From UHGV virus genome UHGV-0312702: a stretch of DNA of 64,000 bases; one strand, given 5' to 3'. The translations under genes and the position numbers were made by a program. Position 1 is the first letter of the stretch. Each line of letters begins with the position of its first letter. Below are positions 3,524 to 46,032 of this stretch, in pieces. A model generated the notes under the pieces. It was not told the origin of the DNA, did no database searches, and was given only the letters and a program-made list of their open reading frames with translations. The stretch is from a virus.

Positions 3524-4267
3524 TTAAATTTTCAGGATAGCTCTTAACTTACTCTCAAGGTCTGCAAGAGTACCATTATTATGGATAATGTCACGCGCAT
3601 ATTTGGTAGAAATCCCATTTTCTGACACATGTGATGAAACCTTATCCACATTGTCTCTTTTTACTTCAATCATTTGGTGCGCAAATCTGCTCAGCCACTC
3701 AGCTTCAGAGTCAAACCTCAAGTCACTGATTAAAACAACACCTTCTTGATTTCTAAGTGAGCAAAGGTCAAAGAAATTCACCATTCGTTTTTCTAGGTCT
3801 TTAGCCCAGAACTTGTCACCCATAACTTTACGGATAACTTCAGTTCCCCAAATCTGTTGGATTTGTCTTGATGAGAATTTATACTTTTTACTAAATCCCA
3901 GACGAGTTAATAGAGTCGGTTTAGCAACCTTCTTCAGTTCCATGATTAATCGTCCGGTTAATTCTGACATAAGCTTGAAGTCAGTATGGTAACGTTCACC
4001 TCTGAAGGTAAACTCCATAGCTTCTGTAACTTTGAACAGAAGTTCAGAATATGATAAATCAAAAACCTGTGGAGTCTCTTTAGTTTCCCCATATAGGTCA
4101 TTCCAAGTCAGGTCAAATATCTTTGATGCAGAGAGTTTAAGATTGTCTGCATAGGCCATTACTGCAACATTGTAGCCATATTCATCTTCTAAGATGTTCT
4201 TCACAATAGAACATGAGGTATCTTTTCCAGAACGTGCCTTTCCAGTAAATGCAATAATATTACTCAT
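3524..4267 (-). CDS. P-loop kinase, possibly deoxynucleoside monophosphate kinase
   Basis: N-terminal P-loop FTGKARSGKDT typical of phage dNMP kinases. Confidence 0.5.
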   Translation of the reverse strand: MSNIIAFTGKARSGKDTSCSIVKNILEDEYGYNVAVMAYADNLKLSASKIFDLTWNDLYGETKETPQVFDLSYSELLFKVTEAMEFTFRGERYHTDFKLMSELTGRLIMELKKVAKPTLLTRLGFSKKYKFSSRQIQQIWGTEVIRKVMGDKFWAKDLEKRMVNFFDLCSLRNQEGVVLISDLRFDSEAEWLSRFAHQMIEVKRDNVDKVSSHVSENGISTKYARDIIHNNGTLADLESKLRAILKI

Positions 4268-5565: not shown

Positions 5566-5743
5566 GTAAGCCTCTTTTAAGTAACTATTAAGTTTTAATC
5601 TTTTATCTTAACGTATTCTATACGTTATACTTTAAAGCTTTTTAAAAGCTATTAAATAATCTTTTAAGAGTTTTAAAGTATCTGTATAGTTAAACTGTTA
5701 AGTAACCTTTTAAGTAAAAACCCACTTCGCAAAGATTAACACC

Positions 5744-5795
5744 TTGTCAAGTACATTGTCAACTTGCTTTTTATAATTTTTTGCAGTAATGTATG
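5744..5795 (+). promoter_or_regulatory. putative promoter region upstream of DNA polymerase gene
   Basis: TTGTCA repeats and TATAAT/TAATGT hexamers in divergent intergenic region; exact -35/-10 spacing ambiguous. Confidence 0.3.
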
Positions 5796-5822
5796 GGGTT
5801 AATGATTTTAGAGGGAGTAAAA

Positions 5823-8522
5823 ATGGAAAACGTAGATTTTAAAAACTTACATTTAGTTGGTGATACAGAAACTGATGGTTTACTCCTTGAGTTCACTAAA
5901 GTGCACGTAATGGCTTTCGCAGACTATAAATCTGACGATGAAGAGCCACCTGTATGGGTCTTTACAGATGAGCCTATCCTCGGTCACAAATACACCAAGT
6001 ACATCAAGGGTGGGTTACGCGAAGGTGTTGAATTTGCGTTAAAGGCAAAACGTCTTTGCATCCATAATGGTCTCGGTTATGACTGGTGGGTTTTCAATCA
6101 CATTGCACCTGATTTATGGAACTTTGATAATCCAAAATGTAAGCCGTGGAGTAATTTCTTTCAGGATTCTCTTATCCAGTCTCGTGTTCAGTGGATGGAT
6201 AGGCCAACTCCAAAAGGCTATAAAGGTGCTCATGGCTTGGCAGCATGGGGTGCTCGTGTTGGTGTCCGTAAACCAGAGATTGAACATTGGGGTGTGTGGA
6301 ATGCAGAAATCTTCACTCGTGTTGTGGAAGATATCCGTATTAACGCCAAAACTAAACGTGCACTGGATAATGAATATCTCAAGCTAAAGAAGTGTGGCAT
6401 AGACACTTATGAAACCTACATGCGAGCTAAAGAAACATCTTTCTGGATGAGTCAACAGGCTATCAATGGTTGGAAGGCTGATAAAGAGCTTATGGAGTTC
6501 CATGTAAAGGAACTTGACAAGTTGACTAATGAGCTTGCTTCAGAAGTTGAACCACATCTTCCTCCAACTATTAAGACAAAAGGTAAAGTCACTGGAGAAG
6601 AGTTTGCAAAAGCTTGGAATGAGTATGTTGAATCGTTCGGTCATGCAGATGGACTGAAGAGAATTACCAAGTACCCTAAGACGAAGTACCGTCAGCAGGT
6701 ACGTAACGGTGAGATGCAGACATATGAAATCAAGCCATTTGGTAAGCCAACTACAAAGATTTTTAACATTGAAAAGAGAAATTGCTATACACCAACCAAC
6801 TCTGTAACTGGTGAAGAGTACAAGGAAGGTTTTGTAGCAATGAAGGATGCTCGTGCAATTTGCAACGAGTTGAATGCAAAGATTGGTAAGAAATGCAAAG
6901 ACTGGAAGCCAGTAAAAACTGTTAAAACTGTGAAGTACTATAACAGTCATGTTGTTAACCACTTTGAACTTGAGTCAAGTCGCTATACAGGTTTGATTGA
7001 TGCACCATATACACCAATTGAGTTTGAAGTTTCTCGTATGACTCAGGTAGCAGTTGTTAAAGACTACTTGAAATCAGTTGGTTGGATTCCAGATGACTGG
7101 AACTACAAGAAAGATTCAGATGGTCGCCCTGTCAAAGTTTGTCGTTTCAAAGACAACAAAAAGATGATTACAAAGCATCCTAAGTGGCAGGAGATGGTTG
7201 AACGGTGTGGCTTGAGTTATGTTGAACATGAAGGTGTCCAGTACATTGAGCATAACTGGTCTGTGAAGAAGTACACAGATTTGCTTGAGCCTTGTCTGAT
7301 TAGGACTTCACCAAAACTTACTGAATCATCTTATGATACGATTGAAGGTGAGCTTGGACAGAAGATTGCTAAGTACTATACTTTGATGCACCGACGCAGA
7401 ACTATTGAGAACTCAAAGGATGATGAAAAAGGTTGGTTGAACCAGATTCGTCCTGATGGTCGCCTTAGTGCTGGTGCAATGGTATTTGGTACTTCAACTG
7501 GACGTATGACACAATATGGTATTGTAAACGTACCGTCTGGTGCTGCTGTCTATGGGGAACCAATGAGGGCAGTGTGGATTTGTGAAGAAGGTACTAACGT
7601 TGTCTCTGTAGACATGAACTCAGCCCAGCTAGTTCTTCTTTGTAACTTTATGGGTGACAAAGACTTCACCAAAGCGGTAACGCAAGGTAAAGAAGAAATT
7701 GAGTTCATTCGTCAAGAAGATGGACGCTATTACTGTAAACACTTTGATGAGTACCTCAACCCAGAGATTGATAAGTACCTTCGCTATGACTCTGAGAATG
7801 ACCTGTACGTTGTCTATTCAGGGACTGATGCGCATACACTGAACAGTATTTACTTTAACTTGAACGATGAGCAGGATATCTTGACTTGCCGAGCTACTCA
7901 GGATGAGAATCTTCTTCATGAGATTAGTAAGGGTCGTAAGAAAGCTAAGAATGGTATCTATGCACTACTGTTCGGTGCAGGTGATGAGAAGTTTGCTAAG
8001 ACTATTAAAGCTGCAACCACTCAGGAAGGTGCACTGACTAAACAGACTTACTTTATTCGTTTGCCTAAAATTAAGAAGTTGCTGGATGATTTGGAAGCTG
8101 ACTACAAAGCAACTAAAAAGGCACTTGAAGAGGTGTTTGGTAAGACCGCTGCAATTTCTAAAGGGGGATTTGTAAAGGTTGCTGGAGCTTGGTTGTGGTG
8201 TAAATCTCCACACAAACTGTTGAACTATCTTTTGATGGGTTCAGAGGCTCAGATTCAAAATGAGGCAATCAACCTCGCTTGTCGTCGTATGATTGATGAA
8301 GGTTTGATGAAGTTGAATGGTCGTCAACCAGCTATTGGTGCTCGTTTACTCTGTGCATACCACGATGAAACAAGTTGGGAATGTCCAGAAAGTATGACGG
8401 CAGAGGTGAAAGCAGTTACTGACTGGTATTATGGACAAGCTTCTAAGAACTTAGGTCTTAAGAAAGAAACACTTGTCACAGGTACTGGTAAGGTTGGTAA
8501 AAGCTGGCTTGAAGTACACTAA
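5823..8522 (+). CDS. DNA polymerase, family A, with 3'-5' exonuclease domain
   Basis: Exo motif GDTETDGL; pol motif B-like KKAKNGIYALLFGAG; motif C YHDE; start set at ATG 5823 behind RBS GAGGGAG (track start 5793 lacks RBS). Confidence 0.85.
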   Translation: MENVDFKNLHLVGDTETDGLLLEFTKVHVMAFADYKSDDEEPPVWVFTDEPILGHKYTKYIKGGLREGVEFALKAKRLCIHNGLGYDWWVFNHIAPDLWNFDNPKCKPWSNFFQDSLIQSRVQWMDRPTPKGYKGAHGLAAWGARVGVRKPEIEHWGVWNAEIFTRVVEDIRINAKTKRALDNEYLKLKKCGIDTYETYMRAKETSFWMSQQAINGWKADKELMEFHVKELDKLTNELASEVEPHLPPTIKTKGKVTGEEFAKAWNEYVESFGHADGLKRITKYPKTKYRQQVRNGEMQTYEIKPFGKPTTKIFNIEKRNCYTPTNSVTGEEYKEGFVAMKDARAICNELNAKIGKKCKDWKPVKTVKTVKYYNSHVVNHFELESSRYTGLIDAPYTPIEFEVSRMTQVAVVKDYLKSVGWIPDDWNYKKDSDGRPVKVCRFKDNKKMITKHPKWQEMVERCGLSYVEHEGVQYIEHNWSVKKYTDLLEPCLIRTSPKLTESSYDTIEGELGQKIAKYYTLMHRRRTIENSKDDEKGWLNQIRPDGRLSAGAMVFGTSTGRMTQYGIVNVPSGAAVYGEPMRAVWICEEGTNVVSVDMNSAQLVLLCNFMGDKDFTKAVTQGKEEIEFIRQEDGRYYCKHFDEYLNPEIDKYLRYDSENDLYVVYSGTDAHTLNSIYFNLNDEQDILTCRATQDENLLHEISKGRKKAKNGIYALLFGAGDEKFAKTIKAATTQEGALTKQTYFIRLPKIKKLLDDLEADYKATKKALEEVFGKTAAISKGGFVKVAGAWLWCKSPHKLLNYLLMGSEAQIQNEAINLACRRMIDEGLMKLNGRQPAIGARLLCAYHDETSWECPESMTAEVKAVTDWYYGQASKNLGLKKETLVTGTGKVGKSWLEVH

Positions 8523-8583
8523 TTAGTATTGACAAGGTGCTCATGGAAGAGTACCTTATACAATATCTTATATAGGAGGTCAC

Positions 8584-8796
8584 ATGACACTTTCAGACGT
8601 TATTCAGCAACTTCATGACAACTGCTATACTCCAGAGTTGATTCAGGAGATGTCTATTGTGGTAATGCCTTGTAAGTTCGTAAAAGCTTTTAATGGCGAA
8701 TCTTTAAGGTCTGCACATATCCTTATTGTTGACGGCAAGATTGCAAGAGACCGTACAGGAGTCCTTAAGGGTGAACGTATTAGCATTGACATCTGA
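8584..8796 (+). CDS. hypothetical protein
   Basis: 70 aa ORF preceded by AGGAGG. Confidence 0.4.
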   Translation: MTLSDVIQQLHDNCYTPELIQEMSIVVMPCKFVKAFNGESLRSAHILIVDGKIARDRTGVLKGERISIDI

Positions 8797-8969: not shown

Positions 8970-8983
8970 ATAGGAGAAGTATT

Positions 8984-9220
8984 ATGTGGAAAGCAGTAAT
9001 TGTGCTTGGTGTTATCTTTCTATCTGGCTGTAATCCCTCTTACGAGGACAAAAATGCTTCTTATAGTCTCCCACCAGAGATGCAAGATTGCAAAGTCTAT
9101 AAGTTAAATGGGGATGCAATAAGCAGAGATATTGTTGTTGTCAGATGTCCAAACTCTCAAACAACAACATCTTATAGCTATGGCAAAAATGGTCAATCAC
9201 ACACTACTGTTATTGAGTGA
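8984..9220 (+). CDS. small lipoprotein
   Basis: signal peptide with lipobox (VIFLSG-C) then short mature domain. Confidence 0.5.
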   Translation: MWKAVIVLGVIFLSGCNPSYEDKNASYSLPPEMQDCKVYKLNGDAISRDIVVVRCPNSQTTTSYSYGKNGQSHTTVIE

Positions 9221-9437: not shown

Positions 9438-9652
9438 ATGTAGAAGATAAATTAAAGAACGCAGTTCTTACAGAAGATGGTGCGCTTGAAACATTCATTC
9501 TTCGTGTTGATGGTAAGTTATTCCGGTGTCGTTGTGGGTCAAACTGTTTCCATAAACCAGATAAAAACGACTTAGAGCTTTACGCATGTAATGCTTGCGA
9601 CACTTGGTATCACTCAGAGGTTAAAAATGACAATTCTATACAAACAAAATAA
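9434..9652 (+). CDS. zinc-ribbon protein
   Basis: CRCGSNC...CNACD Cys4 pattern. Confidence 0.4.
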   Translation: MNVEDKLKNAVLTEDGALETFILRVDGKLFRCRCGSNCFHKPDKNDLELYACNACDTWYHSEVKNDNSIQTK

Positions 9653-10727
9653 AGACGGCTCTTTCAACGTTTGGTCATGCGTTGCTGTAGGTGATAAAGT
9701 TGTTACAACCTACGGTAAAGAAAATGGCAAGATGATGTTTGAAGAGTATACAGCAGAACCTAAAAACATCGGTAAAAAGAATGAGCGTAACGCTGAACAG
9801 CAAGCTCTCTTTGAAGTTGCTGCAAAGTATAAAAAGCAGGTTGACCGCAAAGGTTATGCTTACACAAAAGAGTCTGCACAGAATACTGAGAAGGCAGGTG
9901 TACAGCTTGCTCATGATGCTGCAAAGGTTAGCCACGCAAAGTATTTGAAGTTCCCTGCTGATGCTCAACCAAAACTTGATGGTGTACGTTGCAGAATTTC
10001 AAGAGATGCTGATTCAGTTAGTTTCACAGCTTATTCTCGTGAGAATACTGTTTACAACGTTCCAGTAGAACTAATTCCAGATTTGCTTTTGTTGCTTAAA
10101 TTACATCCACAAGTTGAAGACTTTGATGGAGAGATTTATGCTCATGGTTGGGACTTAGAAGATATTGTATCCATGATTAAGAATGCTGACAATCCAGACC
10201 GTCACCTTCTTAAATTCTACTGGTATGATATCTGTGACAATTCAAAATCTTGGCCTGAGCGTCGTGAAGTTATTGATAGTTCACCTATTGTTGAGCTTGG
10301 GGATACCTGTAGAGTTGTTCCTGTACAGACTATCCGTGTAAATTCTTGGGAAGAGTTTGATGAAGCTCATGATAAGTGGGTTGAAGCTAAGTTTGAAGGT
10401 GCAATGTACCGTTCAATCTCTGAAGACTCCTTCTATGAGTGTTGTCACCGTTCATACTTCTTGATTAAGCACAAGAAGATGCACACTGAAGAGTTTAAAG
10501 TAACTGGTGTAAAGACTGATAAGCGTGGCCACGGTAAGTTCGTTGTAGAGACTCTTCCTAACGTCTTTGTAGATGTCTCATGGAAGACTACTCATGAGAA
10601 GAAACAGTATCTTGCTGAGCATCCTGAAGAGTTTATCGGGAAGCCTTTAACGGTTCAGTTCCAGAAGATGACTCGTAAGGGGTCTTTACAGTTTCCTGTT
10701 GGTCTCGTTATTAGGGATTATGAATAG
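9627..10727 (+). CDS. ATP-dependent DNA ligase
   Basis: motif I KLDGVR (adenylation lysine), FDGEIY, EGAMYR, LIKHKK; start at ATG 9627 with RBS. Confidence 0.75.
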   Translation: MTILYKQNKDGSFNVWSCVAVGDKVVTTYGKENGKMMFEEYTAEPKNIGKKNERNAEQQALFEVAAKYKKQVDRKGYAYTKESAQNTEKAGVQLAHDAAKVSHAKYLKFPADAQPKLDGVRCRISRDADSVSFTAYSRENTVYNVPVELIPDLLLLLKLHPQVEDFDGEIYAHGWDLEDIVSMIKNADNPDRHLLKFYWYDICDNSKSWPERREVIDSSPIVELGDTCRVVPVQTIRVNSWEEFDEAHDKWVEAKFEGAMYRSISEDSFYECCHRSYFLIKHKKMHTEEFKVTGVKTDKRGHGKFVVETLPNVFVDVSWKTTHEKKQYLAEHPEEFIGKPLTVQFQKMTRKGSLQFPVGLVIRDYE

Positions 10728-11897
<1,170 letters not shown>

Positions 11898-11899
11898 TT

Positions 11900-12340
11900 A
11901 TGAATACAAAAGCATTAGCAGCAAAGTTTAGTTACGGTGACACTGTATCACATTCTGAGATGGACACCTTCTTAGGTATTGTGAAGCCAACTTATCAAGG
12001 TGACATTGTTAAGTACGAAGATGAAATGAAGGCTTATGCGCTTACACGCCTAAACCGACTTGAGAAGTTTATTGAGAAGCTTCTTAAAGAAGAGAAGATT
12101 TATCTGGTTGCTTCAATGGGTGTTGGTTATCGTGTGGTTGAACCTAAGCATCAAGCAACTATTGCAAAACGTAAAATGTCTGGCAAGATTGGTCGAGCTT
12201 TAAAGCAAGCTACTCAAGCAATTGAGAATGTGAACACTATGGCACTTAGCCATCAAGAACGTTCACGACTAATTGAACAGCAAAACCATTTAGCTGCTAT
12301 GAAAGCTAACATTAACAAGCAACGTAGAAAACCTTTCTAA
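11900..12340 (+). CDS. hypothetical protein
   Basis: 146 aa ORF, basic C-terminus. Confidence 0.5.
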   Translation: MNTKALAAKFSYGDTVSHSEMDTFLGIVKPTYQGDIVKYEDEMKAYALTRLNRLEKFIEKLLKEEKIYLVASMGVGYRVVEPKHQATIAKRKMSGKIGRALKQATQAIENVNTMALSHQERSRLIEQQNHLAAMKANINKQRRKPF

Positions 12341-12722
12341 GTTGACTAGGTAGCCTCTTCGGAGGCTCCTTTTTAAAAGGTCTTTAAACAGGGTCTTTTA
12401 ATGAGGTATGGTGAGGTGTTGTATGGTAGTGTCTGGTCCGGTAGGGTGAGGTTCGGTCCGGTAGGGTCTGGTATGGGTAGTTAATCGGAGCTACATAAAA
12501 ATTCGATTACATCACTTAAGAGTCTTTTAAAAGGGTTTTTAAGTGTTGTGAGGTGATGTACGGTCGGGTATGGCTATGTCTTGTATGGTTTGGTATGGAA
12601 GGATGGCAGTAGCCTTATAAAAAATCTGCCAAATAAGCTATAAAATCTGTTGACAAGTCAGGTGTTATAGCTTATTTTTATACTCAATGCAATACAAAAT
12701 TTAATATAACTTTGAGGTCATT
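12341..12722. repeat. noncoding GT-rich region B (paralog of region A, modules rearranged)
   Basis: 5-nt periodic tracts approx 12405-12480 and 12549-12610; same boxes and hairpin as region A. Confidence 0.6.
12650..12678 (+). promoter_or_regulatory. putative sigma70-like promoter
   Basis: TTGACA at 12650-12655, 17-nt spacer, TATTTT; duplicated TATAAAA(A)TCTG boxes upstream. Confidence 0.4.
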
Positions 12723-13106
12723 ATGAAAAAGATTTTATTAGCTGCTGCAATGGTTATGGCAATGAATTTACCAGTCAATGCAACAGAACTCCCAAATGTG
12801 GACTTATCAGGTGTTCCAGAAGACACTTGCCAGATTGTTAAAGGTGTTGCTCTAGCTAATGGTGAGCTACTTAAACCAATCTCTGAAGAGTCTTTAACAG
12901 AGATGACTGACAAAGTGACTGACTATCAATATCGCGTTCTTGCAGAGTATTTCCTGCAATCTGCAAACATTAAAGAGAAGCACCCTGATGATATTGATGT
13001 ACAGACTATGCTCAATCATCGTATTCAGTTTAAAGAAGATTTGATGCAAAAAGCTATGTATGGTGTTGAGTATTTCTTAGAAAACAGAAGCTGCACAGGT
13101 ATTTGA
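12723..13106 (+). CDS. secreted/periplasmic hypothetical protein
   Basis: N-terminal signal peptide MKKILLAAAMVMAMNLPVNA. Confidence 0.5.
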   Translation: MKKILLAAAMVMAMNLPVNATELPNVDLSGVPEDTCQIVKGVALANGELLKPISEESLTEMTDKVTDYQYRVLAEYFLQSANIKEKHPDDIDVQTMLNHRIQFKEDLMQKAMYGVEYFLENRSCTGI

Positions 13107-16214: not shown

Positions 16215-16245
16215 AAGGCTCCCGTAAAAAGGAGCCTTAAAATTT
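16215..16245. terminator. bidirectional intrinsic terminator between convergent genes
   Basis: AAGGCTCC-cgtaaaaa-GGAGCCTT hairpin flanked by A/T tracts. Confidence 0.6.
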
Positions 16246-16616
16246 TATTTTTCAGTATTCTTTGTGTTCTTTTCAGTAATAGCTTGCAAGGCTGATACTG
16301 ATTGAGCCAGATTGTTCACACTGTCAGAGAATTTATCAAGAGTTTTGGTAAGTTTTGCGTTTTCGCCCTTAACGTTCTCTAACTGAACTTTCTGGTTCTC
16401 CATCCCTAACTGAAGCAATCTCATGTCAGACTGTAAATCACGAATAGCTGAGTAATTAGATTTACTGTAATTATCTAGCTGCTGTAATTTTGTTGTGATA
16501 GACACTTCTTGCTTACCATCCGAAACTTGCATGGTGGTATACATCCCAATAACACTAAAAATACCAACTACAATTGCACCAATATTATTTTTAAAAGCTT
16601 CCTCTAGCCACCTCAT
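16245..16616 (-). CDS. membrane protein with N-terminal TM helix and coiled-coil domain
   Basis: hydrophobic IGAIVVGIFSVIGMY then heptad-like Q/L-rich region. Confidence 0.45.
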   Translation of the reverse strand: MRWLEEAFKNNIGAIVVGIFSVIGMYTTMQVSDGKQEVSITTKLQQLDNYSKSNYSAIRDLQSDMRLLQLGMENQKVQLENVKGENAKLTKTLDKFSDSVNNLAQSVSALQAITEKNTKNTEK

Positions 16617-16889: not shown

Positions 16890-19451
16890 TTAAGCAGTTC
16901 TTACCCAAGCCATTAACTTGTAGAACTGGTTAGTAACACTAAATGCTGAACCAGAACCTGTACCACCAGTGTTACCACTAACTGTATGAGTGTGAGCACC
17001 GATACCTACAGAGTGGGTGTGAGCACCAGTGTTGCTTGTAGTACCAGACCATGTGTGTGTATGGTTACCAGTTGTGTTAGTGTTAGGGAACTTGTTATCA
17101 GTTCTGTCAAGCCAGTCAAGAGTCCTTGTCTTATTGTTACCAACTGTTGTATAACCGTACAAAGCATCACCACCATTAACTAATAACAAACCTAAGTGGT
17201 GAGCGTGGTTACCAGCAGCACTTGTTGTACCACTTACAGTGTGAGTATGACCACCAGTGCTATTAGTGCTCTTCGTACCATAATCAAAAGATGAAGTGGT
17301 AGCAGAAAAGCTGTGAGTGTGTGATGGTAAGTTACCAACAGCTAACGTCACAGAATCTGAACCACCTGTTGTAGCAACATCTGAACCATTTGCTGCTGCG
17401 ATTCTGATAGTTCTACCAACACCATTATTCAGGTACGTCCAAGTTAACCCAGGCAACGCTGTGTTAGGGTCAACATTGCTGTTAAACCATGTCACAATAC
17501 CTACTGGATAGATTTTATTAAGGTCTGTAGAGTCACTTACAGCCTGTGCAATCTTCTGGTCAGTCTCAGCTTTAGTATATGCACCAATATCTGAAGGGGT
17601 TGGTTTCAAGAGACTAGTATAATAATAAGCAATTGTCCCAGCAACATAGTCAGATGGAGCACTGTCAGATGTCTCTGGGATTTCAAACAGTTGTACTGTT
17701 GCGTTATCTGATGACTGAACCCTAGCTGTCGTAGCGTTTTGGTAGTTACCAGCTTTGCAATAGATATCATAATTATCGCCAGATGTATTAACATACCCAA
17801 TTTCCATCACAACACCATTCGGTGAGTTTTTCCATGCAACAACATTTAATCCTTTTGGTTTACCATTCCCTGCTCTAATAACAATCTCTGTTTTACATGC
17901 TTGGTCAGGCGTATTATAGTTGAACCCAGACCCACCAAACAGCTCAATTACCGCTGTCGATGTTGCCTGCGGCATAGTAACAGTTGCAATCTTAGCCCAT
18001 TTAGTCACACCATTAGTGTTAAAGCCAGCACTTCTTACCCTCAGATACCTATTATCAGCAGATGATTTGTTGTAGTATCTCCCATCAATGTTAGTCCAAT
18101 CAGAAGGTTGAACTTGACCAGTGATTCTAACTGTTTTGTTCAGTAAGAAGTCATCCTTCATGTAAATGGTAGTAGCAGTCCTGTCATTGTGGATAATGAA
18201 CCTTTCTGGGTTGCTTGGTTCCCCATTACCGATATACCACCTTCTAACACCATCAGCATTAAAACCAGCAAAGTATAACTCCCTGTCTTGTGCAGTATTC
18301 CTTAGTTGTAACAATAAGCCATTTTGATTAATAATCTGTGCAGACCTGAAATTGTTTACATCACTTAGCTTAGCAAGATTACTCAAAGTAGCTGCTGGGA
18401 TATATCTAGAGTCAATGTTAGCCCAATCAGAAGGTTGAACTTGACCACCAATTTGGACTGTTCTACTCATGGTAATGGTGTTACCTAGTGAGATTTGTGT
18501 TTTTGCTAAATAGTTATAGATGTTTACAATATTCTCATCACCGTCATTACCAATGTACCACTTATTAGTTCCGTCTGACTTTCTTGCTTGGATATACAAA
18601 GCCGCAGTTGTATCTACATTTTGAATAGTAATAGCATTAGCATTCTTCTTAATAACAAAATTAGTGAAAATATTAGAACCACTAAAAGTATTATTGCCAG
18701 CTAACTGTGCAAATCTCTGATTAGCAACTGTCTGAGTAAAATATCTAGCATCTAGGTTAGAGAAATCAGAAGGTTGAACTTGACCAGTGATTCTTAGTGT
18801 TTTATTGATAGCAATGTCGTTAGCAAGATTAACATATGCACCGGTCTTGTAGTTGGAGATAGTAACATCATCACTCCCTGAACCATTACCTACATACCAC
18901 CTATTATTACCAGCACTATCCTGACCTCTGATATACAACGGTGAGTTCTCAGAAGAGTTTTTTACCCTAAGAGCTTCACCATTTGCTTGGATAATTTGCT
19001 GGAAGGTGAAGATGTTATTTGCCGTTAATCTTGAGTATCTTGCATCATTCTCTTCATTAGTTCTCATCCCAAGTTCATTAGGGCTTGGTTTATTCAGAGT
19101 GTGATAAACAGTTGCTGACCTTGAAGCATCTGCAATAGTCAGTTTAAGACCATTTGCATTGATTTTAAAAGTCTTTAAAACATCCCCAATATTAATCTCA
19201 GAAGAACCTGTTGGGTTAAATACTACCTTACCACCATAAAGTAACTTAACAATCCCTAAGTCACCCGTCATAGTGCTACCAGCAATCTGAACAAATCTTT
19301 CAAGTTTAAAAGATGCTAAGAAGTCTTGATAGGTCATTCGACGGTCTTCATCACCAAGCATTTCAGGTCTCTTTTTAACTCTGACATGAAGAAGGTCGTC
19401 TGAACGGATTGTGTCGATTGAGTTTAATTCACTCAACTTGTAATCTGCCAT
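16890..19451 (-). CDS. tail fibre protein with internal repeats and His-x-His C-terminal tip
   Basis: three [10 protein letters not shown](x)N(I/L)D(x)RY modules; C-terminal GNHTHT/GAHTHS/GAHTHT repeats. Confidence 0.7.
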
Positions 19452-19497
19452 TATAAATTTTCCTCTAAAAAGGGGCTATAAAGCCCCTGTAAAGAAA

Positions 19498-20685
19498 TTA
19501 AGCTGTTCTCTGCCATACATACAGTACGAAGGATGGCTGCTCAATGTTGAAAGCTTGTCCACCACCAACACTATTAGTGTTCCCGCTATGCGTATGTTCA
19601 GAAGAAGAAACTGTTACAGTACCATTATGTGTATGCGAGCCAATACCAACTGTGTGGCTGTGAGCACCAATACCTACTGTATGGTTGTGGTTACCAGTTG
19701 TGTTGGTTGTGACACTGAAAGAGTGTGTGTGTGCACCAGCGACTTCACAGACAGCATCTGCTGAGTACCATGATTGGTCATTCCTTGTAGACCAAACCAT
19801 TGCAGGTCTTTCCGATAGACCACCACCTGCTTCATATGTCAATCTGTGGTTGTGAGCACCAGCAGTACTTGTTGACCCACTACCAACATGGTTGTGGTTA
19901 CCTGTTGTGTTAGTAGTCTTTGTTCCATAATCAAAAGAGTTGGTAGTCTTAGCTCCATAGTCAAAAGCTGAAATTGACACAGTTGCATTATGAGTGTGAG
20001 CACCACCACTAAGAGATACAGAGTGGGAATGCTGAGGCATATTATTAACTGACAAAGTAACAGTTGAAGCACCAAATACAGAACCTGCTGGTCTTGTGTC
20101 AGAGTCATAACCAACCAATGCTCTACCCTTTGAAACTAACTCCCAAGTACCTCCACAAATTAAATATGTAGAAGGGTTTGCAGAGTTCATAGAAAGATGA
20201 ATAGTACCTACCGGATAAGAAGCCTGAACAGCCTTGTACAAGTTATTTACTGCTCTTGCTGTAGCATACTTATTTGCATCTTCATTATAAAGGTCAGATG
20301 TTGTCCAGTTCTGAACATTACTTAAGCCAACCTGTGCCTTAGTTGTATTGTGTGGGTTACTCTTGTCCTTGATATGTTGTTGGACAAGATTATTAACCTC
20401 TTCTGAAGACATAATCTGTAGATTTGCTCTTGCTTCAGCCACATCAACAATATCTGATAAGTTATTTGCAGCGACTAACTGGAGAGCATTAATAACATTA
20501 TCTAAACCAATTTGTGTTTTAGTAACACCATGAGGGTTGTTTCTTAGGCTTGAGTGTGGAGCAAGTAATTGCTCAAGAGTACACCTTTTATCCTCAATAC
20601 CCTGCTTAAGATGGAAGATATCGCTAAGGTCAATTGGTAAGGCTGCTTGAGGCAAGGCACTAATTTGAATTTCACCTACTGCCAT
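19498..20685 (-). CDS. tail fibre protein with His-x-His C-terminal repeats
   Basis: NPH..TK.Q.GL.NV collar-like repeats; C-terminal GNHNH/GAHNH/GAHTH/GSHTH motifs. Confidence 0.65.
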   Translation of the reverse strand: MAVGEIQISALPQAALPIDLSDIFHLKQGIEDKRCTLEQLLAPHSSLRNNPHGVTKTQIGLDNVINALQLVAANNLSDIVDVAEARANLQIMSSEEVNNLVQQHIKDKSNPHNTTKAQVGLSNVQNWTTSDLYNEDANKYATARAVNNLYKAVQASYPVGTIHLSMNSANPSTYLICGGTWELVSKGRALVGYDSDTRPAGSVFGASTVTLSVNNMPQHSHSVSLSGGAHTHNATVSISAFDYGAKTTNSFDYGTKTTNTTGNHNHVGSGSTSTAGAHNHRLTYEAGGGLSERPAMVWSTRNDQSWYSADAVCEVAGAHTHSFSVTTNTTGNHNHTVGIGAHSHTVGIGSHTHNGTVTVSSSEHTHSGNTNSVGGGQAFNIEQPSFVLYVWQRTA

Positions 20686-40405: not shown

Positions 40406-40481
40406 TGGAGAATCCGAAGGGACTCGAACCCTTATAAACCTGTTTTGCAGACAGGCACATAGCCATTTCTGTCACGGATTC
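40406..40481 (-). tRNA. tRNA-Cys (anticodon GCA)
   Basis: manual fold: acceptor GAATCCG/CGGATTC, T-loop GGTTCGAGTCC, loop CTGCAAA, CCA encoded. Confidence 0.65.
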
Positions 40482-40485
40482 AAAT

Positions 40486-40578
40486 TGGAGGAAGATACCA
40501 GACTTGAACTGGTACACCGATTTCTCAGCTACTGGCAGTTTAGCAAACTGCTCCCTTACCTTTTAGGGTTAATCTTCC
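40486..40578 (-). tRNA. tRNA-Ser (anticodon GCU), long variable arm
   Basis: 93 nt; acceptor GGAAGAT/ATCTTCC; anticodon loop TTGCTAA. Confidence 0.65.
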
Positions 40579-40579
40579 A

Positions 40580-41314
40580 TTATTTCTGTAATGCGCTCTT
40601 CATTTCTGGTGTTGCAATAGTGTCAATCACACCAGTTTTACAAGCATCATCAAACCAGTCTGGTAAGATACCTGCTAAGAACCCATTGATATTCGTTTTA
40701 AGGTACTCTGCAATAAGGGCAGCTTCTTCTTCAATCATCTGCACAACTTCATCTGCATAAGCTGTAATCTTTGAGATACCTTCATTAATCTTACTAACAG
40801 CCTGATTAGCTAAATCAGAAACAGTATCAAGACCCTTATCAATAGCATCTTGTAAGTCACTTAATACATCATTAACGCTGTCTAGTGTATCATTAATAGC
40901 ATCAATAGCTTTTTGACCATACTCTGTAGCAACACCCATAATACCGCTGAATGGTGTACAACCAACTTGTTCTCCCGCTGCACCCATAACATTGGAATAT
41001 CCCTTTGCTACCTGCATACGTGATGAAAACTCGTCAATAGACTTTTGACCGTAGTCTGTTAGGGTCTTAGTAGTTGCTGTAGTGCTTGTCAGACTCGTTG
41101 TAAAGCTGTTTAGAAGGACTGTTGTAAGTCCAGCAGCAACAAGTTTTTCCTTCATTGCAGGGTCTGTTACAGAGCTAATAGAGCTTACAAGTGATGTAGA
41201 GGCAGCTACGGTTCCACCTAGAACTGCTGCACCAGTAATAAGGGGGTTAGAAAACCCTTTACCAGTTTTTAAGAGATTAAAAATCTCCTTACCTTGTCCT
41301 GTCATCTCTTTCAT
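40580..41314 (-). CDS. hypothetical protein inside tRNA cluster
   Basis: start set at ATG 41314 with RBS AAAGGTG; track start 41377 runs through tRNA-Phe. Confidence 0.45.
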   Translation of the reverse strand: MKEMTGQGKEIFNLLKTGKGFSNPLITGAAVLGGTVAASTSLVSSISSVTDPAMKEKLVAAGLTTVLLNSFTTSLTSTTATTKTLTDYGQKSIDEFSSRMQVAKGYSNVMGAAGEQVGCTPFSGIMGVATEYGQKAIDAINDTLDSVNDVLSDLQDAIDKGLDTVSDLANQAVSKINEGISKITAYADEVVQMIEEEAALIAEYLKTNINGFLAGILPDWFDDACKTGVIDTIATPEMKSALQK

Positions 41315-41330
41315 TAAGCACCTTTGAAAT

Positions 41331-41407
41331 TGGTAGTCCAGTGGGATTTGAACCCTCTTCTCATGTTTTTCAGACACGCGCTTTAACCATATAAGCTACT
41401 TGGACTA
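41331..41407 (-). tRNA. tRNA-Phe (anticodon GAA)
   Basis: acceptor TAGTCCA/TGGACTA; loop CTGAAAA; T-loop GGTTCAAATCC. Confidence 0.65.
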
Positions 41408-41412
41408 TAAAT

Positions 41413-41489
41413 TGGGGTGACCTACGGGATTTGAACCCGTATAGACCATGTTCACAGCATGGGTCATTACCATTTATGATAAGGCCACA
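41413..41489 (-). tRNA. tRNA-His (anticodon GUG)
   Basis: loop CTGTGAA, discriminator C. Confidence 0.6.
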
Positions 41490-41519
41490 TTTAAGGACTC
41501 TCGTAAGAACCCTTAGAAG

Positions 41520-41595
41520 TGGCAGCGGCATAAGGATTTGAACCTTAATAGGACAGCTTCAGAGACTGTTGCATTGCCAGTTATGCTATACCGCT
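41520..41595 (-). tRNA. tRNA-Gln (anticodon CUG)
   Basis: loop CTCTGAA, discriminator G. Confidence 0.6.
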
Positions 41596-41600
41596 AAATT

Positions 41601-41679
41601 TGGTACTCCATATCGGATTCGAACCGATACATAACACAGATTTTAAGTCTGGCCTCTCTGCCAATTGGAGTAATGGAGC
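41601..41679 (-). tRNA. tRNA with anticodon UAA (Leu codon UUA) but short variable loop
   Basis: loop CTTAAAA; T-arm ATCGG-TTCGAAT-CCGAT; discriminator A; no long variable arm. Confidence 0.45.
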
Positions 41680-41681
41680 AT

Positions 41682-41756
41682 TGGCGGGGGATGTTGGAAT
41701 TGAACCAACTTCTTCGATTTCAAAGACCGAGGTTTTAACCTTGTAAACTAATCCCC
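41682..41756 (-). tRNA. tRNA-Gln (anticodon UUG)
   Basis: loop CTTTGAA, discriminator G. Confidence 0.6.
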
Positions 41757-41765
41757 TTTAAATCT

Positions 41766-42323
41766 TTACTTTCTTAGTGGATGAATAAAGAATGCCAACA
41801 TAACTCTTTCCCTTGAGAATGCTCTTTCTTCTGGGACAACACTTTTAAGTTTCCACCCAACATAAATTCTCCAGTAAAATTGTTTACCAAAGACTTTAAT
41901 TGATGGGATAAAAGCAAATAATCCCCAAGCATTGCTGTTCCACATTAGGAGATAACCTGTCTGATTATCTTCAGGGTTAGAACTTACGTTGATATTACCT
42001 TTCCACTTAGTAACATCTTTTACATCTCTTCCTAACACATGGTAAGAGAAGTTATAAGCTTTGTTTCTCCAGAGCCATCCAACTCTCTGCATATAAACAC
42101 CGAGCTTACCAATCTTTCTAATCTTAGCCCATCGTTTGATATGACCTGCATCACCATCAATTGGGTTGTCATAAGTCTCCATCCATCTGAAACCAAAAGG
42201 CAGATGACCTTTCTTCTCACTGTAGAATGGGACTACGAAAGGTGCTAAGATAACTGCCAAGATTGCTGCAAATGGCTCTAACAAAGCTAAGAAAATCCAT
42301 GAAGCATACTTCAAATATCTCAT
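41766..42323 (-). CDS. membrane protein
   Basis: hydrophobic N-terminus WIFLALLEPFAAILAVILAPFVVPF. Confidence 0.5.
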   Translation of the reverse strand: MRYLKYASWIFLALLEPFAAILAVILAPFVVPFYSEKKGHLPFGFRWMETYDNPIDGDAGHIKRWAKIRKIGKLGVYMQRVGWLWRNKAYNFSYHVLGRDVKDVTKWKGNINVSSNPEDNQTGYLLMWNSNAWGLFAFIPSIKVFGKQFYWRIYVGWKLKSVVPEERAFSRERVMLAFFIHPLRK

Positions 42324-42562
42324 TGTCTAATCCTAGTAAGGAGGTAAACATTATTATTTGTTTCTGAGTTTTCTGGTAAAGCTGTCTCAAAATTGACGCT
42401 TTTAAATTGTCTCCCACCAAAGTAATGACCAATAAATTTTTGTACTTTTATTGGGTCACATTCCCAGCCAACTTTCAAGAAAATGTGGGTATCTATAGTG
42501 GGAACCCTTACAAACTCAATACTATTGGAATTTTCATGTTCAACGACGATTAATGTTTGCAT
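42320..42562 (-). CDS. hypothetical protein
   Basis: 80 aa coupled ORF. Confidence 0.35.
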   Translation of the reverse strand: MQTLIVVEHENSNSIEFVRVPTIDTHIFLKVGWECDPIKVQKFIGHYFGGRQFKSVNFETALPENSETNNNVYLLTRIRQ

Positions 42563-42580
42563 AAATCTCTCTTATTTATC

Positions 42581-42656
42581 TGGCGCAGGATAAGGGACTT
42601 GAACCCCTATTAACAGCTTCGTAGACTGTTGCTCTATCCATTTGAACTAATCCTGC
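42581..42656 (-). tRNA. tRNA-Arg (anticodon ACG)
   Basis: acceptor GCAGGAT/ATCCTGC; loop CTACGAA. Confidence 0.65.
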
Positions 42657-42661
42657 AAAAT

Positions 42662-42739
42662 TGGTGTTCCAAGACGGATTCGAACCGTCACTAGTACAAG
42701 GTTTGAGCTTGCATCCTCTGCCAATTGGGATACTGGAAC
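42662..42739 (-). tRNA. tRNA with anticodon CAA (Leu codon UUG) but short variable loop
   Basis: loop CTCAAAC; T-arm GACGG-TTCGAAT-CCGTC; discriminator A. Confidence 0.45.
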
Positions 42740-42740
42740 A

Positions 42741-42815
42741 TGGTACTCACTAAAGGACTTGAACCTTTTTCTTCATCTTGTAAGGGTGATGTTTTACCAT
42801 ATAAACTAAGCGAGT
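42741..42815 (-). tRNA. tRNA-Val (anticodon UAC)
   Basis: loop CTTACAA. Confidence 0.55.
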
Positions 42816-42911
42816 GTGAAAGAGGTCTGAAGTTGTGCCACTAACTCAACTCCGTGGAATTTGTTACGGTCTTCAGTTGACTCAAAGTGGTCTTTCACTT
42901 GACCTCTGAAT

Positions 42912-42987
42912 TGGTGCTCCCACAAGGATTCGAACCCTGATAAGTTGCTTACAAGGCAACCGTAATAGCCAATTATACGATAGGAGC
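42912..42987 (-). tRNA. tRNA-Thr (anticodon UGU)
   Basis: stem GTTGC/GCAAC, loop CTTGTAA. Confidence 0.65.
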
Positions 42988-42994
42988 ATTAATT

Positions 42995-43069
42995 TGGAGC
43001 ATCCAGAGGGAATCGAACCCTCAACCTCAGTTTGGAAGACTGTAATTTTCCCGTTTAAACTATGGATGC
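42995..43069 (-). tRNA. tRNA-Gly (anticodon UCC)
   Basis: acceptor GCATCCA/TGGATGC; loop CTTCCAA; discriminator U. Confidence 0.6.
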
Positions 43070-43075
43070 ACTAAT

Positions 43076-43151
43076 TGGTGGAGAAGCAGGGAATTGAACC
43101 CTGTACTTAAGTTTGCAAAACTTATGTTTTAACCATGTAAACTACATCCCC
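43076..43151 (-). tRNA. tRNA-Ala (anticodon UGC)
   Basis: G3:U70 wobble in acceptor stem; loop TTTGCAA. Confidence 0.6.
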
Positions 43152-43157
43152 AATGTT

Positions 43158-43233
43158 TGGTACAGGTGGAGGGAATTGAACCCATCGTCTTACTGATTAA
43201 GAGTCAGCCGCATAACCATTTTGCTACACCTGC
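43158..43233 (-). tRNA. tRNA-Lys (anticodon CUU)
   Basis: loop CTCTTAA. Confidence 0.55.
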
Positions 43234-43240
43234 ATTAATT

Positions 43241-43316
43241 TGGTACACCTAGAGAGATTCGAACTCACACTGAGCAGATTCTAAGTCTGCTGCCTCTACC
43301 AGTTGGGCTATAGGTG
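43241..43316 (-). tRNA. tRNA with anticodon UAG (Leu codon CUA) but short variable loop
   Basis: 6-bp anticodon stem AGCAGA/TCTGCT; loop CTTAGAA; discriminator A. Confidence 0.45.
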
Positions 43317-43563
43317 CATTAAATCTTTTTAGAGAACTTCTAAGAACCTAAGCAACAAGGTTCCACAACAAGCTGTAATAACCTTAGAAGCCCTCTAAAA
43401 AGACCTAAAAAGGTCTTTGCATAGTCTTGTTTAATCCGGTGACTAGAACCTTTGGAGAGCTTGATATTATCTCTTCTCCGTGACACCTACTAGGTGCTTT
43501 ACTGTGCGTGTACGACAATACACGAGGGATACCAAAGCAACATCCGAATGAAGCTTGGCTTTA

Positions 43564-43653
43564 AATCTTATTAGGCGGTAAGTAAAGGAGTCGAACCCTC
43601 ACCGTATCTCTACAGTGGCAACTGTTTTCAAGACAGTTTGGCTACCATTAGCC
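43564..43653 (-). tRNA. tRNA-Ser (anticodon UGA), long variable arm
   Basis: acceptor GGTAGGT/ACTTACC; loop CTTGAAA; discriminator G; CC but no terminal A encoded. Confidence 0.55.
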
Positions 43654-43676
43654 GCTACCTACCCCTAATAAGACTT

Positions 43677-43759
43677 TGGCATGGGACGGAGGAGTTGAAC
43701 CCCTTTGAAACGGTTTTGGAGGCCGTTGCTCATGCCTTAGAGTCTTAACATCGTCCCAC
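43677..43759 (-). tRNA. atypical tRNA-like gene, candidate tRNA-Trp (anticodon CCA)
   Basis: acceptor GTGGGAC/GTCCCAT; loop CTCCAAA; about 7 extra nt in D-arm region. Confidence 0.4.
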
Positions 43760-43901
43760 ACTATAATTCGAAACTTACCGTATTATCTCAACACTGTAAA
43801 GCCCCTTCTCAGATTATTTACATGTTCTGGAAAACATGAGATACAGACCACCTCCCTACAGGAAGACCCGCTTAGGTCGTCTAAGTAATCTGCTAACTAA
43901 T

Positions 43902-43978
43902 TGGCACACCCTACAGGATTCGAACCTGTAACTAACGATTTAGAAGACCGTTGCTCTATCCAATTGAACTAAGGGTGC
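43902..43978 (-). tRNA. tRNA-Arg (anticodon UCU)
   Basis: acceptor GCACCCT/AGGGTGT; loop CTTCTAA. Confidence 0.65.
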
Positions 43979-44271
43979 ATTAATCTTTAAAGACTCTCTT
44001 AGAAAGCCCTTAAAGATGCCCACCTTATTAATCATACCGTGGGCTAGTACGCCAAATTCTTTGATGAGGGATTGGAAGACCTCACTGGTGTTTAGCCTAT
44101 CAAGCTACTGCCAGAAAAACATTGTCGTTTGCATTTATTTTAAATTTGCAAAATAGACGCTACGCAACGAAAACTATTCAGAATATGTACAACAAATTTC
44201 CCCACATTGTGTTACGTCTAACGCTCATGTATTGGTGTTTGAATTATACATATTATGAATTATTTTTAGTT

Positions 44272-44300
44272 ACTATAAAGTAGTCACATCTCAATGTCAA
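44272..44300 (-). promoter_or_regulatory. strong sigma70-like promoter inside tRNA cluster
   Basis: minus strand TTGACA (44295-44300), 17-nt spacer, TATAGT (44272-44277). Confidence 0.55.
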
Positions 44301-44315
44301 CAACTTTATTGAAAT

Positions 44316-44390
44316 TGGTTGTAGGTGAGGGTATCGAACCCTCTTCTAACGGTTATCAGCCGTTTGCATTACCATTTATGCTAACCCACA
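44316..44390 (-). tRNA. tRNA-Ile (anticodon GAU)
   Basis: loop CTGATAA. Confidence 0.6.
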
Positions 44391-44392
44391 AT

Positions 44393-44469
44393 TGGAGGTT
44401 CAGGTGGGAATCGAACCCACATTCATAGGGCTTATGAAACCCCTGCATTACCTTATCTGCGACTGAACC
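44393..44469 (-). tRNA. tRNA-Met (anticodon CAU)
   Basis: loop TTCATAA; G-C-rich anticodon stem. Confidence 0.55.
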
Positions 44470-44473
44470 ATAT

Positions 44474-44549
44474 TGGTAGAAGTGGAGGGATTCGAACCCA
44501 TCGCCTGTCAGATTAAAAGTCTGCCGCATCACCATTCTGCTACACTTCC
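44474..44549 (-). tRNA. tRNA-Lys (anticodon UUU)
   Basis: loop CTTTTAA. Confidence 0.55.
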
Positions 44550-44698
44550 ATTAAATTATCTTTGTAGATAAGCTACCCAGACTTGCTTAAGGTCTGTAGC
44601 GATGTGCCTTGTTGGGTTTAAATCTAGAATTTACCCTTTCACCCTTTGTGGTCGCATACTCACAGGTAAGCTTAATAGCTCACCTACAAAGATAATTA

Positions 44699-44830
44699 CC
44701 AGACCGTTGTTTATCATCTTAAGTGCTACCATTACACCAACTCGACATCTGCCGAGTGAAGGAATCGAACCTTCGCCTTTTCTTTACCGGAGAAATAGAT
44801 TGTTTAAGTTTTGCTGTAAACGGTCTTCTG
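44699..44830 (-). ncRNA. candidate Y-RNA-like ncRNA E1 with tRNA-like module
   Basis: 5' box CAGAAGACC; terminal helix AGACCGTT/AACGGTCT; internal T-arm GAAGG-TTCGATT-CCTTC, acceptor-like hairpin ACTCGGC-AGAT-GTCGAGT, D-arm-like TGGTGTAATGGTAGCAC. Confidence 0.4.
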
Positions 44831-44843
44831 TAAATTTGTTGAG

Positions 44844-44917
44844 CCAGACCAAGTTTTAAATTTTCAAAATTAAATTGGCTTGAAATTTCATACATTCTTG
44901 CTGAATTTGGTCTTCTG
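44844..44917 (-). ncRNA. candidate Y-RNA-like ncRNA E2
   Basis: same 5' box; terminal helix AGACCAA/TTGGTCT (covaries with E1/E3). Confidence 0.35.
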
Positions 44918-45004
44918 CTCCTTTAAAGAATACTCGCAAGAACTCTTTAAGGGAGGGGCTAAATAGCCCTCTCAAAACATCATTTTGAAATACTTATTAT
45001 AATT

Positions 45005-45082
45005 TGGCGGTTACGAAGGGATTTGAACCCTCATCATCTCCCGTGACAGGGGAGTATTTTAACCAGATTAAACTACATAACC
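45005..45082 (-). tRNA. tRNA-Asp (anticodon GUC)
   Basis: stem CTCCC/GGGAG, loop CTGTCAC, discriminator G. Confidence 0.65.
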
Positions 45083-45087
45083 TTTAT

Positions 45088-45175
45088 TGGTGTGCCGTGT
45101 AGGAGTCGAACCTACCGAGTCTCAATGACAAGGGATTTACAGTCCCCACCGCTACCATCTACGGGATAACGACAC
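45088..45175 (-). tRNA. tRNA-Tyr (anticodon GUA), long variable arm
   Basis: 88 nt; loop CTGTAAA. Confidence 0.6.
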
Positions 45176-45184
45176 ATTTTAATT

Positions 45185-45261
45185 TGGCGGTTAGTCAGGG
45201 ATTCGAACCCTGTGCCATTCGCTTAACAGGCGACCGCACATACCTTATGTGCTTCCTAACC
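45185..45261 (-). tRNA. tRNA-Asn (anticodon GUU)
   Basis: loop CTGTTAA. Confidence 0.6.
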
Positions 45262-45272
45262 TTAATACATTG

Positions 45273-45331
45273 CCAGACCGTGTTTTTCTTTTATCCGCAA
45301 AAAGTAGTTTGTTGCTGAATACGGTCTTCTG
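45273..45331 (-). ncRNA. candidate Y-RNA-like ncRNA E3
   Basis: 5' box; terminal helix AGACCGT/ACGGTCT; begins about 6 nt after a tRNA 3' end. Confidence 0.35.
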
Positions 45332-45337
45332 CAAAAT

Positions 45338-45413
45338 TGGAGGCGGGTGCAGGAGTCGAACCTGCCGATACCATGCTAATGAGACATGTGAGACGCCCTT
45401 TCTCTATACCCGC
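45338..45413 (-). tRNA. tRNA-Met (anticodon CAU), second copy
   Basis: loop CTCATTA; possible 1:72 mismatch. Confidence 0.55.
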
Positions 45414-45425
45414 AATTCTTAATGA

Positions 45426-45498
45426 CCAGACCAAATCTCTTCTTTGTCCGATTGAATGTCAGATGAATAAGATTAAATTTGCTGTAATTGGTCTTCTG
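45426..45498 (-). ncRNA. candidate Y-RNA-like ncRNA E4
   Basis: 5' box; terminal helix AGACCAA/TTGGTCT. Confidence 0.35.
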
Positions 45499-45505
45499 TC
45501 AAAAC

Positions 45506-45580
45506 TGGTGTCGTAGACAGGATTCGAACCTGCGAGCAACTGATTGAAGGTCAGGTGGCTAACCATTTGCCTTCTACGAC
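45506..45580 (-). tRNA. tRNA-Glu (anticodon UUC)
   Basis: acceptor GTCGTAG/CTACGAC; loop CCTTCAA. Confidence 0.6.
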
Positions 45581-45581
45581 A

Positions 45582-45938: not shown

Positions 45939-45955
45939 AGTAACCCCTTTAAATT

Positions 45956-46032
45956 TGGTCTCTGTTGGAGGACTTGAACCTCCGGCCTTACCGCCCCAAA
46001 CGGAACGCTCTACCAAGCTGAGCTAAACAGAG
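45956..46032 (-). tRNA. tRNA-Pro (anticodon UGG)
   Basis: acceptor CTCTGTT/AACAGAG; loop TTTGGGG. Confidence 0.6.

Follow-up and report, generated by a model that had tools for sequence, protein, structure and literature searches.

The known phage exclusion lipoproteins (Llp, Cor and Rtp45) each turn off one receptor. Llp acts on FhuA and Rtp45 on LptD (PMC9586334, PMC12685063), and the characterised exclusion lipoproteins sit at the receptor-binding-protein locus (PMC11990801). The exclusion genes of T4 are small ORFs inside replication clusters, in the orders 43-imm.1-imm-42 and 41-...-sp-...-61. The gene considered here encodes a small lipoprotein of the DUF4884 family and lies among the replication genes of a phage genome. 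Our best guess, to which we assign a probability of about 0.4 on circumstantial support, is that its product has a receptor-independent role after adsorption, either in exclusion or in protection of the envelope.

The window, that is, the whole stretch of 64,000 nt that was analysed, is a Felixounavirus genome according to sequence matches to phage records. In a DNA search, the 1.2 kb round the lipoprotein gene matched 254 phage records, with the best matches at 96-97% (Escherichia phage EcoM2, ECP2307 and Salmonella phage PK6), and all of the matching records belong to Felixounavirus or other Ounavirinae. The orthologue in Bas63 (JohannRWettstein) is bas63_0042, annotated as 'hypothetical protein'; the gene is thus already catalogued and is an ordinary member of an uncharacterised family. 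Some records named as Campylobacter phage A126, a 'Staphylococcus' phage or Pseudomonas phage vB_PSGBLB0006 (MG065668.1, PV654520.1 and others) carry Felixounavirus or T4 sequence at 77-99% identity and are probably mislabelled or contaminated. Elsewhere in the window, an array of 25 tRNA genes, two of them for tRNA-Met, occupies 40406..46032 on the - strand.

A 227-nt divergent gap precedes a same-strand block whose first long gene encodes the DNA polymerase (5793..8522, + strand; 98% identical to bas63_0047). The lipoprotein gene follows, with the DNA ligase gene (9591..10727) on its 3' side on the same strand. It is flanked by polymerase and ligase in three Felixounavirus genomes (Bas63, PK6 and 35FD) and in two Mooglevirus genomes (Sf15 and Moogle), and a fixed slot in the replication-gene block of Ounavirinae is therefore well supported. 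A scan from polymerase to ligase found no terminator-like sites, the first on the + strand being at 12352, and promoter-like sites were no commoner than in shuffled sequence in a promoter scan. The preliminary description had placed the gene among early genes. As to position this holds, since polymerase and ligase flank it on its own strand and no terminator-like site intervenes; the timing itself we infer from position only, such that the lipoprotein would be made alongside the DNA-replication proteins, early or middle in infection.

Bas63 carries a homing-endonuclease gene (bas63_0046) after its DNA polymerase gene, and in 35FD an HNH gene adjoins a split polymerase gene. The window has just a 61-nt gap at 8522..8584, as compared with the relatives' regions 11216..11743 and 11047..12343, and alignments of the window to these relatives fall into two pieces because the relatives carry homing-endonuclease genes after or inside the polymerase gene. 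A second exported protein is encoded 3.5 kb downstream of the lipoprotein gene (12723..13106, + strand; 127 aa, phrog_4332) and has a Sec-type signal peptide (MKKILLAAAMVMAMNLPVNA-TE). It is 96-98% identical within Felixounavirus and only 33% identical in Mooglevirus Sf15, and so diverges much faster than its neighbours.

The coding sequence, taken from the ORF list and matching phrog_902, runs from ATG to TGA at 8984..9220 on the + strand, stop codon included, and encodes a 78-aa prolipoprotein (MWKAVIVLGVIFLSGCNPSYEDKNASYSLPPEMQDCKVYKLNGDAISRDIVVVRCPNSQTTTSYSYGKNGQSHTTVIE). A Shine-Dalgarno sequence, AGGAG, could be read 7 nt 5' of the ATG (8972..8976), and the stop codon of the preceding ORF is at 8967-8969. 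A rule-based test delimits a signal peptide of residues 1-15 (MWKAVIVLGVIFLSG; 8984..9028) with an n-region made positive by K3 and an uncharged hydrophobic core; the lipobox is L13-S14-G15-C16 (9020..9031). Cys16 (codon 9029-9031) is invariant in both family alignments and is predicted to be the lipid-modified first residue of a mature protein of 63 aa (9029..9217) with Asn at +2. The PROSITE PS51257-type rule asks for K or R within the first 7 residues, six non-charged residues, [LIVMFWSTAG]2-[LIVMFYSTAGCQ]-[AGS]-C, and the Cys at 15-35; the protein has K3, uncharged residues at I6-I11, and F12-L13-S14-G15-C16. The six reading frames of the whole window contain 494 Met-initiated frames of 50 aa or more, and 8984..9220 alone among them fits this rule; a looser lipobox scan of the window added one match, a spurious antisense ORF.

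Orthologues show the gene to be under constraint. In the mature part, dN/dS is 0.19 versus Bas63, 0.02 versus 35FD and 0.06 versus PK6, and from these values across three Felixounavirus orthologues we conclude that the gene is real and under purifying selection. The protein is identical (100%) to that of phage KEP2 and 73-97% identical to those of other Ounavirinae (tblastn). In the comparison with Mooglevirus Sf15, where synonymous sites are saturated, 7 of the first 16 residues are identical as against 52 of 62 in the mature part; to judge by sequence, this variable N-terminus with a preserved mature part is the usual pattern of a signal peptide joined to a functional domain. In alignments of homologues, the lipobox Cys and two more Cys are invariant down to ~30% identity. 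The preliminary description of a small lipoprotein with a classic LSG-C lipobox is thus borne out, both by the rule that singles out this frame and by the selection acting on the gene, and the prediction that the 78-aa protein is a genuine phage lipoprotein is well supported.

By established lipoprotein biogenesis, Sec would export the protein, Cys16 would receive the lipid and signal peptidase II would remove the signal peptide; the Asn at +2 would direct the product to the outer membrane. Asp at +2 is the inner-membrane retention signal in E. coli. The +2 residue varies in the family (Asp in 34/192, the jumbo coliphages included), so an outer-membrane location may not hold for every member.

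AlphaFold2, run with a 75-sequence alignment, models a signal helix followed by a small five-strand beta domain, at moderate confidence (mean pLDDT 78 over the full length and 73 over the mature part). Cys36 (9089..9091) and Cys55 lie at the base of the beta2-beta3 hairpin in the model and are predicted disulfide partners. Both are invariant in 75 sequences, as are C16 and P56, and D35, V52, V53 and G67 are nearly so. Cys55 and Pro56 belong to a signature motif, V52-V53-R54-C55-P56-N57-S58 (9137..9157), whose columns are invariant or nearly so. The residues next to the two Cys include invariant polar ones (D35-C36-K37 and R54-C55-P56-N57-S58), which look more like a candidate binding site than merely a structural core. 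Sequence and comparative evidence together support well a conserved, exported and lipid-anchored mini-domain of 62 residues, presumably stapled by a Cys36-Cys55 disulfide. Foldseek searches of the PDB with the full-length and mature-only models returned nothing below E=1, although the tool is weak on 60-residue models of moderate confidence. Against BFVD, Foldseek returned family members only, all unnamed or called 'lipoprotein'. Searches of PDB sequences with phmmer and the family profile at E<=10 gave only one unrelated enzyme and one signal-peptide match.

The protein matches phrog_902, a family annotated as of unknown function, over residues 1-76 (profile search, E=6e-17). Homologues 55-95% identical, and nearly all of 102 relatives, bear the precomputed tag PF16225 (DUF4884). 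A local Pfam scan did not return PF16225 for any family member, and it may be that the local Pfam copy lacks DUF4884 or has retired it. All hallmarks of DUF4884 are present here, namely a length of ~75-110 aa, an N-terminal lipobox, two conserved Cys and a Cys-Pro motif (VVRCPNS). An exhaustive search with the family profile recovered 1,231 clusters at E<=1e-3, 697 of them at E<=1e-10, and all 150 proteins among the matches listed of the 1,231 are 71-154 aa long. The lipobox is found in 192/197 family members having the core motif, and the mature part of these contains three Cys in 164/192 and five in 25/192, i.e. one or two pairs in addition to the lipid-bearing Cys. When scanned against Pfam, NCBIfam and PADLOC, the lipoprotein had matches only at the level of the signal peptide, such as TrbK, LptM and LPAM_1. 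In the literature searched there was no experiment and no function paper on any DUF4884 member, and 'DUF4884' appeared only in two annotation tables.

By tblastn the family occurs in 586-601 phage records. Its carriers comprise Ounavirinae, ~290 T5-like Vibrio phages, Acinetobacter phages (Obolenskvirus and the T4-like Acj61), Aeromonas phages (including the T4-like Aeh1 and phiAS5), phages of Pectobacterium, Serratia, Cronobacter and Klebsiella, and jumbo coliphages. DNA matches to the gene numbered zero in 5,426 complete E. coli genomes and one in plasmids, and the motif VVRCPNS[SQD]T was found in 1 of 185,579 species genomes, a lower bound as it is a single strict motif. Metagenomic contexts of family members are phage-like, and the family appears nearly confined to virulent phage genomes. 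The single motif-bearing species genome is that of Hylemonella gracilis ATCC 19624, in which a typical member (5983..6261; 92 aa, lipobox LAGC) has as neighbours, from translations read by eye, a possible helix-turn-helix regulator, a further ORF whose N-terminus resembles a lipobox and a large secreted protein; the neighbourhood looks like a small genomic island. We found no conserved partner gene, the neighbours being unrelated in six phage lineages. In the jumbo phage Turkey3 a second small lipoprotein (MIKKLLTVVFVFCTMFLTAC...; 3614..3889), unrelated to the family, is encoded two genes 3' of the DUF4884 gene, and the DUF4884 copy of Turkey3-type jumbo coliphages has Asp at +2.

Two neighbourhoods, in phage lineages unrelated to each other, connect the family with exclusion genes. 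In T4-like phage Acj61, the DUF4884 gene (p058) immediately precedes p057, and 61.1 and 61 come next. Acj61p057 (a 'hypothetical protein', 7274..7585 of the region examined) matches the Pfam T4_Spackle profile (PF25676) over its full length with E=2.3e-4 and a score of 22.1 bits, which is below Pfam's 27-bit cut-off, and shares with T4 Sp a C-terminal YCDxxF. From its sequence, Acj61p057 thus looks like a divergent Spackle homologue, and since the gene order in T4 is sp-61.2-61.1-61, the p058/p057 region corresponds to the T4 sp neighbourhood. The same cluster upstream of gene 61 encodes another small lipoprotein, Acj61p062 (5661..5936 of the region examined). In Obolenskvirus QH4, the DUF4884 gene lies three genes upstream of one for a clear Imm_superinfect protein (E=8e-14). 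Such an association with sp or imm was seen in 2 of ~9 lineages examined. The other lineages show no exclusion-gene neighbour, so the neighbourhood evidence is suggestive only, and the association could also be due to chance because these regions are crowded with small early ORFs. The lipoprotein itself has no match to the Spackle (PF25676) or Imm (PF14373) profiles in Pfam, and tblastn found neither T4 Sp nor T4 Imm in the window. Homology to T4 Sp was rejected, as hhalign aligns the signal peptide only, and so was homology to T4 Imm.1, for which signal peptides alone align (hhalign probability 17%). Since DUF4884 co-occurs with Sp and Imm, it seems to have a function of its own that adds to theirs.

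The preliminary description had favoured exclusion by masking of the receptor. In that case the lipoprotein would attach, from the periplasmic side, to the outer-membrane receptor that the phage itself uses and turn it off, as Llp and Rtp45 do. We keep the exclusion-type role as a best guess; masking we consider improbable, even though a small, probably early phage lipoprotein about the size of Llp and Rtp45 (PMC9586334, PMC12685063) would suit it. Felixounaviruses recognise LPS, not protein receptors (PMC8594841), whereas a periplasm-facing lipoprotein reaches surface loops only through an outer-membrane protein (PMC9586334, PMC12685063). The fibre genes (16890..20685) also belong to another gene block, 8-11 kb away and on the other strand. 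Within the genus no proteins vary more than the fibres (PMC12609058), and here the genes for the long tail fibre (16890..19451, - strand; 68% identity to Bas63 over part of its length) and the short tail fibre (19498..20685, - strand; 74% to Bas63) are far more divergent than the backbone, Salmonella phage 35FD having no long-fibre orthologue at this locus. The lipoprotein does not co-vary with them: its identity is 94-96% in comparisons that give 68% or 40% for the long fibre and 74% for the short one. Moreover, members of the family are carried by Vibrio, Acinetobacter, Aeromonas, Pectobacterium and Serratia phages, as well as by jumbo coliphages, and the adsorption organs of these are unrelated. 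Comparisons by sequence, profile or fold gave no similarity to any solved structure, with Llp, Rtp45 and Spackle absent among the matches listed. What marks the Llp/Rtp45/Cor type (similarity to a characterised member, a place at the receptor-binding-protein locus with co-variation, and an outer-membrane protein as terminal receptor) is lacking here. Had a T5-like Vibrio phage with a DUF4884 gene also encoded an Llp-like protein next to its fibres, the two functions would have been shown to be separate; no such gene turned up, which speaks neither for nor against masking. The lipoprotein probably alters the envelope of the infected cell, and almost certainly does so otherwise than by masking the phage's own receptor. 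A function in lysis, as the outer-membrane subunit of a spanin or as a periplasmic regulator of lysis timing, is highly improbable. Outer-membrane lipoproteins of such a size are typical of o-spanins, and rII genes are present in Felixounaviruses. Nevertheless, no i-spanin gene adjoins or overlaps the lipoprotein gene, the neighbours of which encode small, cytoplasmic-looking proteins that lack a membrane anchor, and the genes for holin (16245..16616) and endolysin (50825..51289) are distant. Spanins of the lambda Rz1 type are mostly unstructured and proline-rich, whereas this domain is predicted to be a folded beta structure. The o-spanin identity, which the preliminary mention of lysis would have implied, is ruled out by a separate overlapping i-/o-spanin pair in Ounavirinae (Moogle121/122), which is kept in 319 records and is located outside the window; the whole Moogle genome encodes two credible lipoproteins, namely its o-spanin and the DUF4884 protein.

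The main rival to a post-adsorption exclusion or protection role is that the periplasmic domain inhibits or redirects a conserved host envelope factor and so keeps the infected cell intact and productive until lysis. Such a factor could be a protease or nuclease of the periplasm, an enzyme that degrades the cell wall, the machinery for outer-membrane biogenesis, or a defence or stress sensor located in the envelope. We regard this takeover as somewhat unlikely, though several observations are in keeping with it: the spread of the family over unrelated phages and hosts implies a general target, the gene is nearly confined to virulent phages and has no fixed partner, conserved polar residues surround the predicted disulfide, and most lineages have no exclusion gene nearby. 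On the other hand, the protein shows no likeness to known inhibitor families, with no Pfam hits and no PADLOC match, and both of the existing neighbourhood clues point to exclusion genes. A Foldseek match to the lysozyme inhibitor Ivy was not significant (E 4.8-6.4, TM 0.36-0.38), and among the periplasmic lysozyme inhibitors Ivy, MliC/PliC and PliG there was no Pfam profile match at E<=10 and no significant fold match.

In the preferred reading, a role after adsorption in exclusion or envelope protection, the beta domain, stapled by the Cys36-Cys55 disulfide, would hang in the periplasm and bind a target conserved across Gram-negative envelopes or incoming phages. Since the family is found in phages with unrelated tails and hosts, this target should be general; candidates are peptidoglycan, some other constituent of the periplasm, or the machinery at the tail tip of a second phage. 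Binding would shield the infected cell, either by blocking envelope penetration or genome delivery by a superinfecting phage or by preventing lysis from without. Such an action would resemble that of T4 Spackle and Imm and differ from that of Llp, which disables the phage's own receptor.

The interest of the gene rests on the breadth of its family. Because the family is common to Felix O1-like, T5-like, T4-like, rV5-like and jumbo phages that infect several host genera, a single-receptor mechanism is impossible. The target of such a family would be a vulnerable point shared by Gram-negative envelopes or by the ways in which phages enter, and its identification could reveal a new principle of exclusion and matter for the design of phage cocktails, as phages of the Felix O1 type are widely used against Salmonella and E. 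coli. It is conceivable, though we think it rather doubtful, that DUF4884 proteins form a pan-phage group of early periplasmic lipoproteins, with a fold unseen in solved structures, that act on a common component of the Gram-negative envelope or of the phage tail. If this is true, DUF4884 would be a third type of receptor-independent exclusion or envelope-protection factor beside Spackle and Imm, and its retention by virulent phages across many families and hosts would be accounted for.

Compared with the described systems, the protein shares with T5 Llp, Rtp45 of phage Rtp and Cor of T1/phi80-type phages the character of a small virulent-phage lipoprotein, probably early, with a predicted anchor in the outer membrane and its domain turned to the periplasm, and with the Llp type a mature part of ~60 residues with extra Cys. 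It differs from them in giving no match, in lying away from the receptor-binding protein with no co-variation, and in a phage that uses LPS instead of a beta-barrel receptor (PMC8594841); furthermore, the Llp-type proteins are receptor-specific, whereas DUF4884 spans many phage families and hosts. The o-spanins lambda Rz1 and T4 PseT.3 likewise have an outer-membrane lipoprotein signal and a small size, but here an i-spanin gene to pair with is missing, and a folded beta domain is predicted for the periplasmic part. T4 Imm.1 (DUF5481) is an uncharacterised small lipoprotein (MKIAILVIALGLAGC...) whose gene lies just 3' of the DNA polymerase gene and adjoins imm, a strikingly similar position, although it belongs to a different family and is unrelated in sequence. 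The imm.1 gene itself (NC_000866; 11637..12014 of the region examined), located between gene 43 and imm, specifies an N-terminus of the lipoprotein type, and with only 125 aa the product seems misnamed as 'iduronate sulfatase' in RefSeq. T4 Spackle (Sp, gp61.3) and Imm are, like the DUF4884 protein, small exported or membrane proteins encoded among replication genes, and they act after adsorption; Spackle is soluble in the periplasm and Imm resides in the inner membrane, whereas the DUF4884 protein is predicted to be lipid-anchored and has no homology to either beyond the signal peptide.
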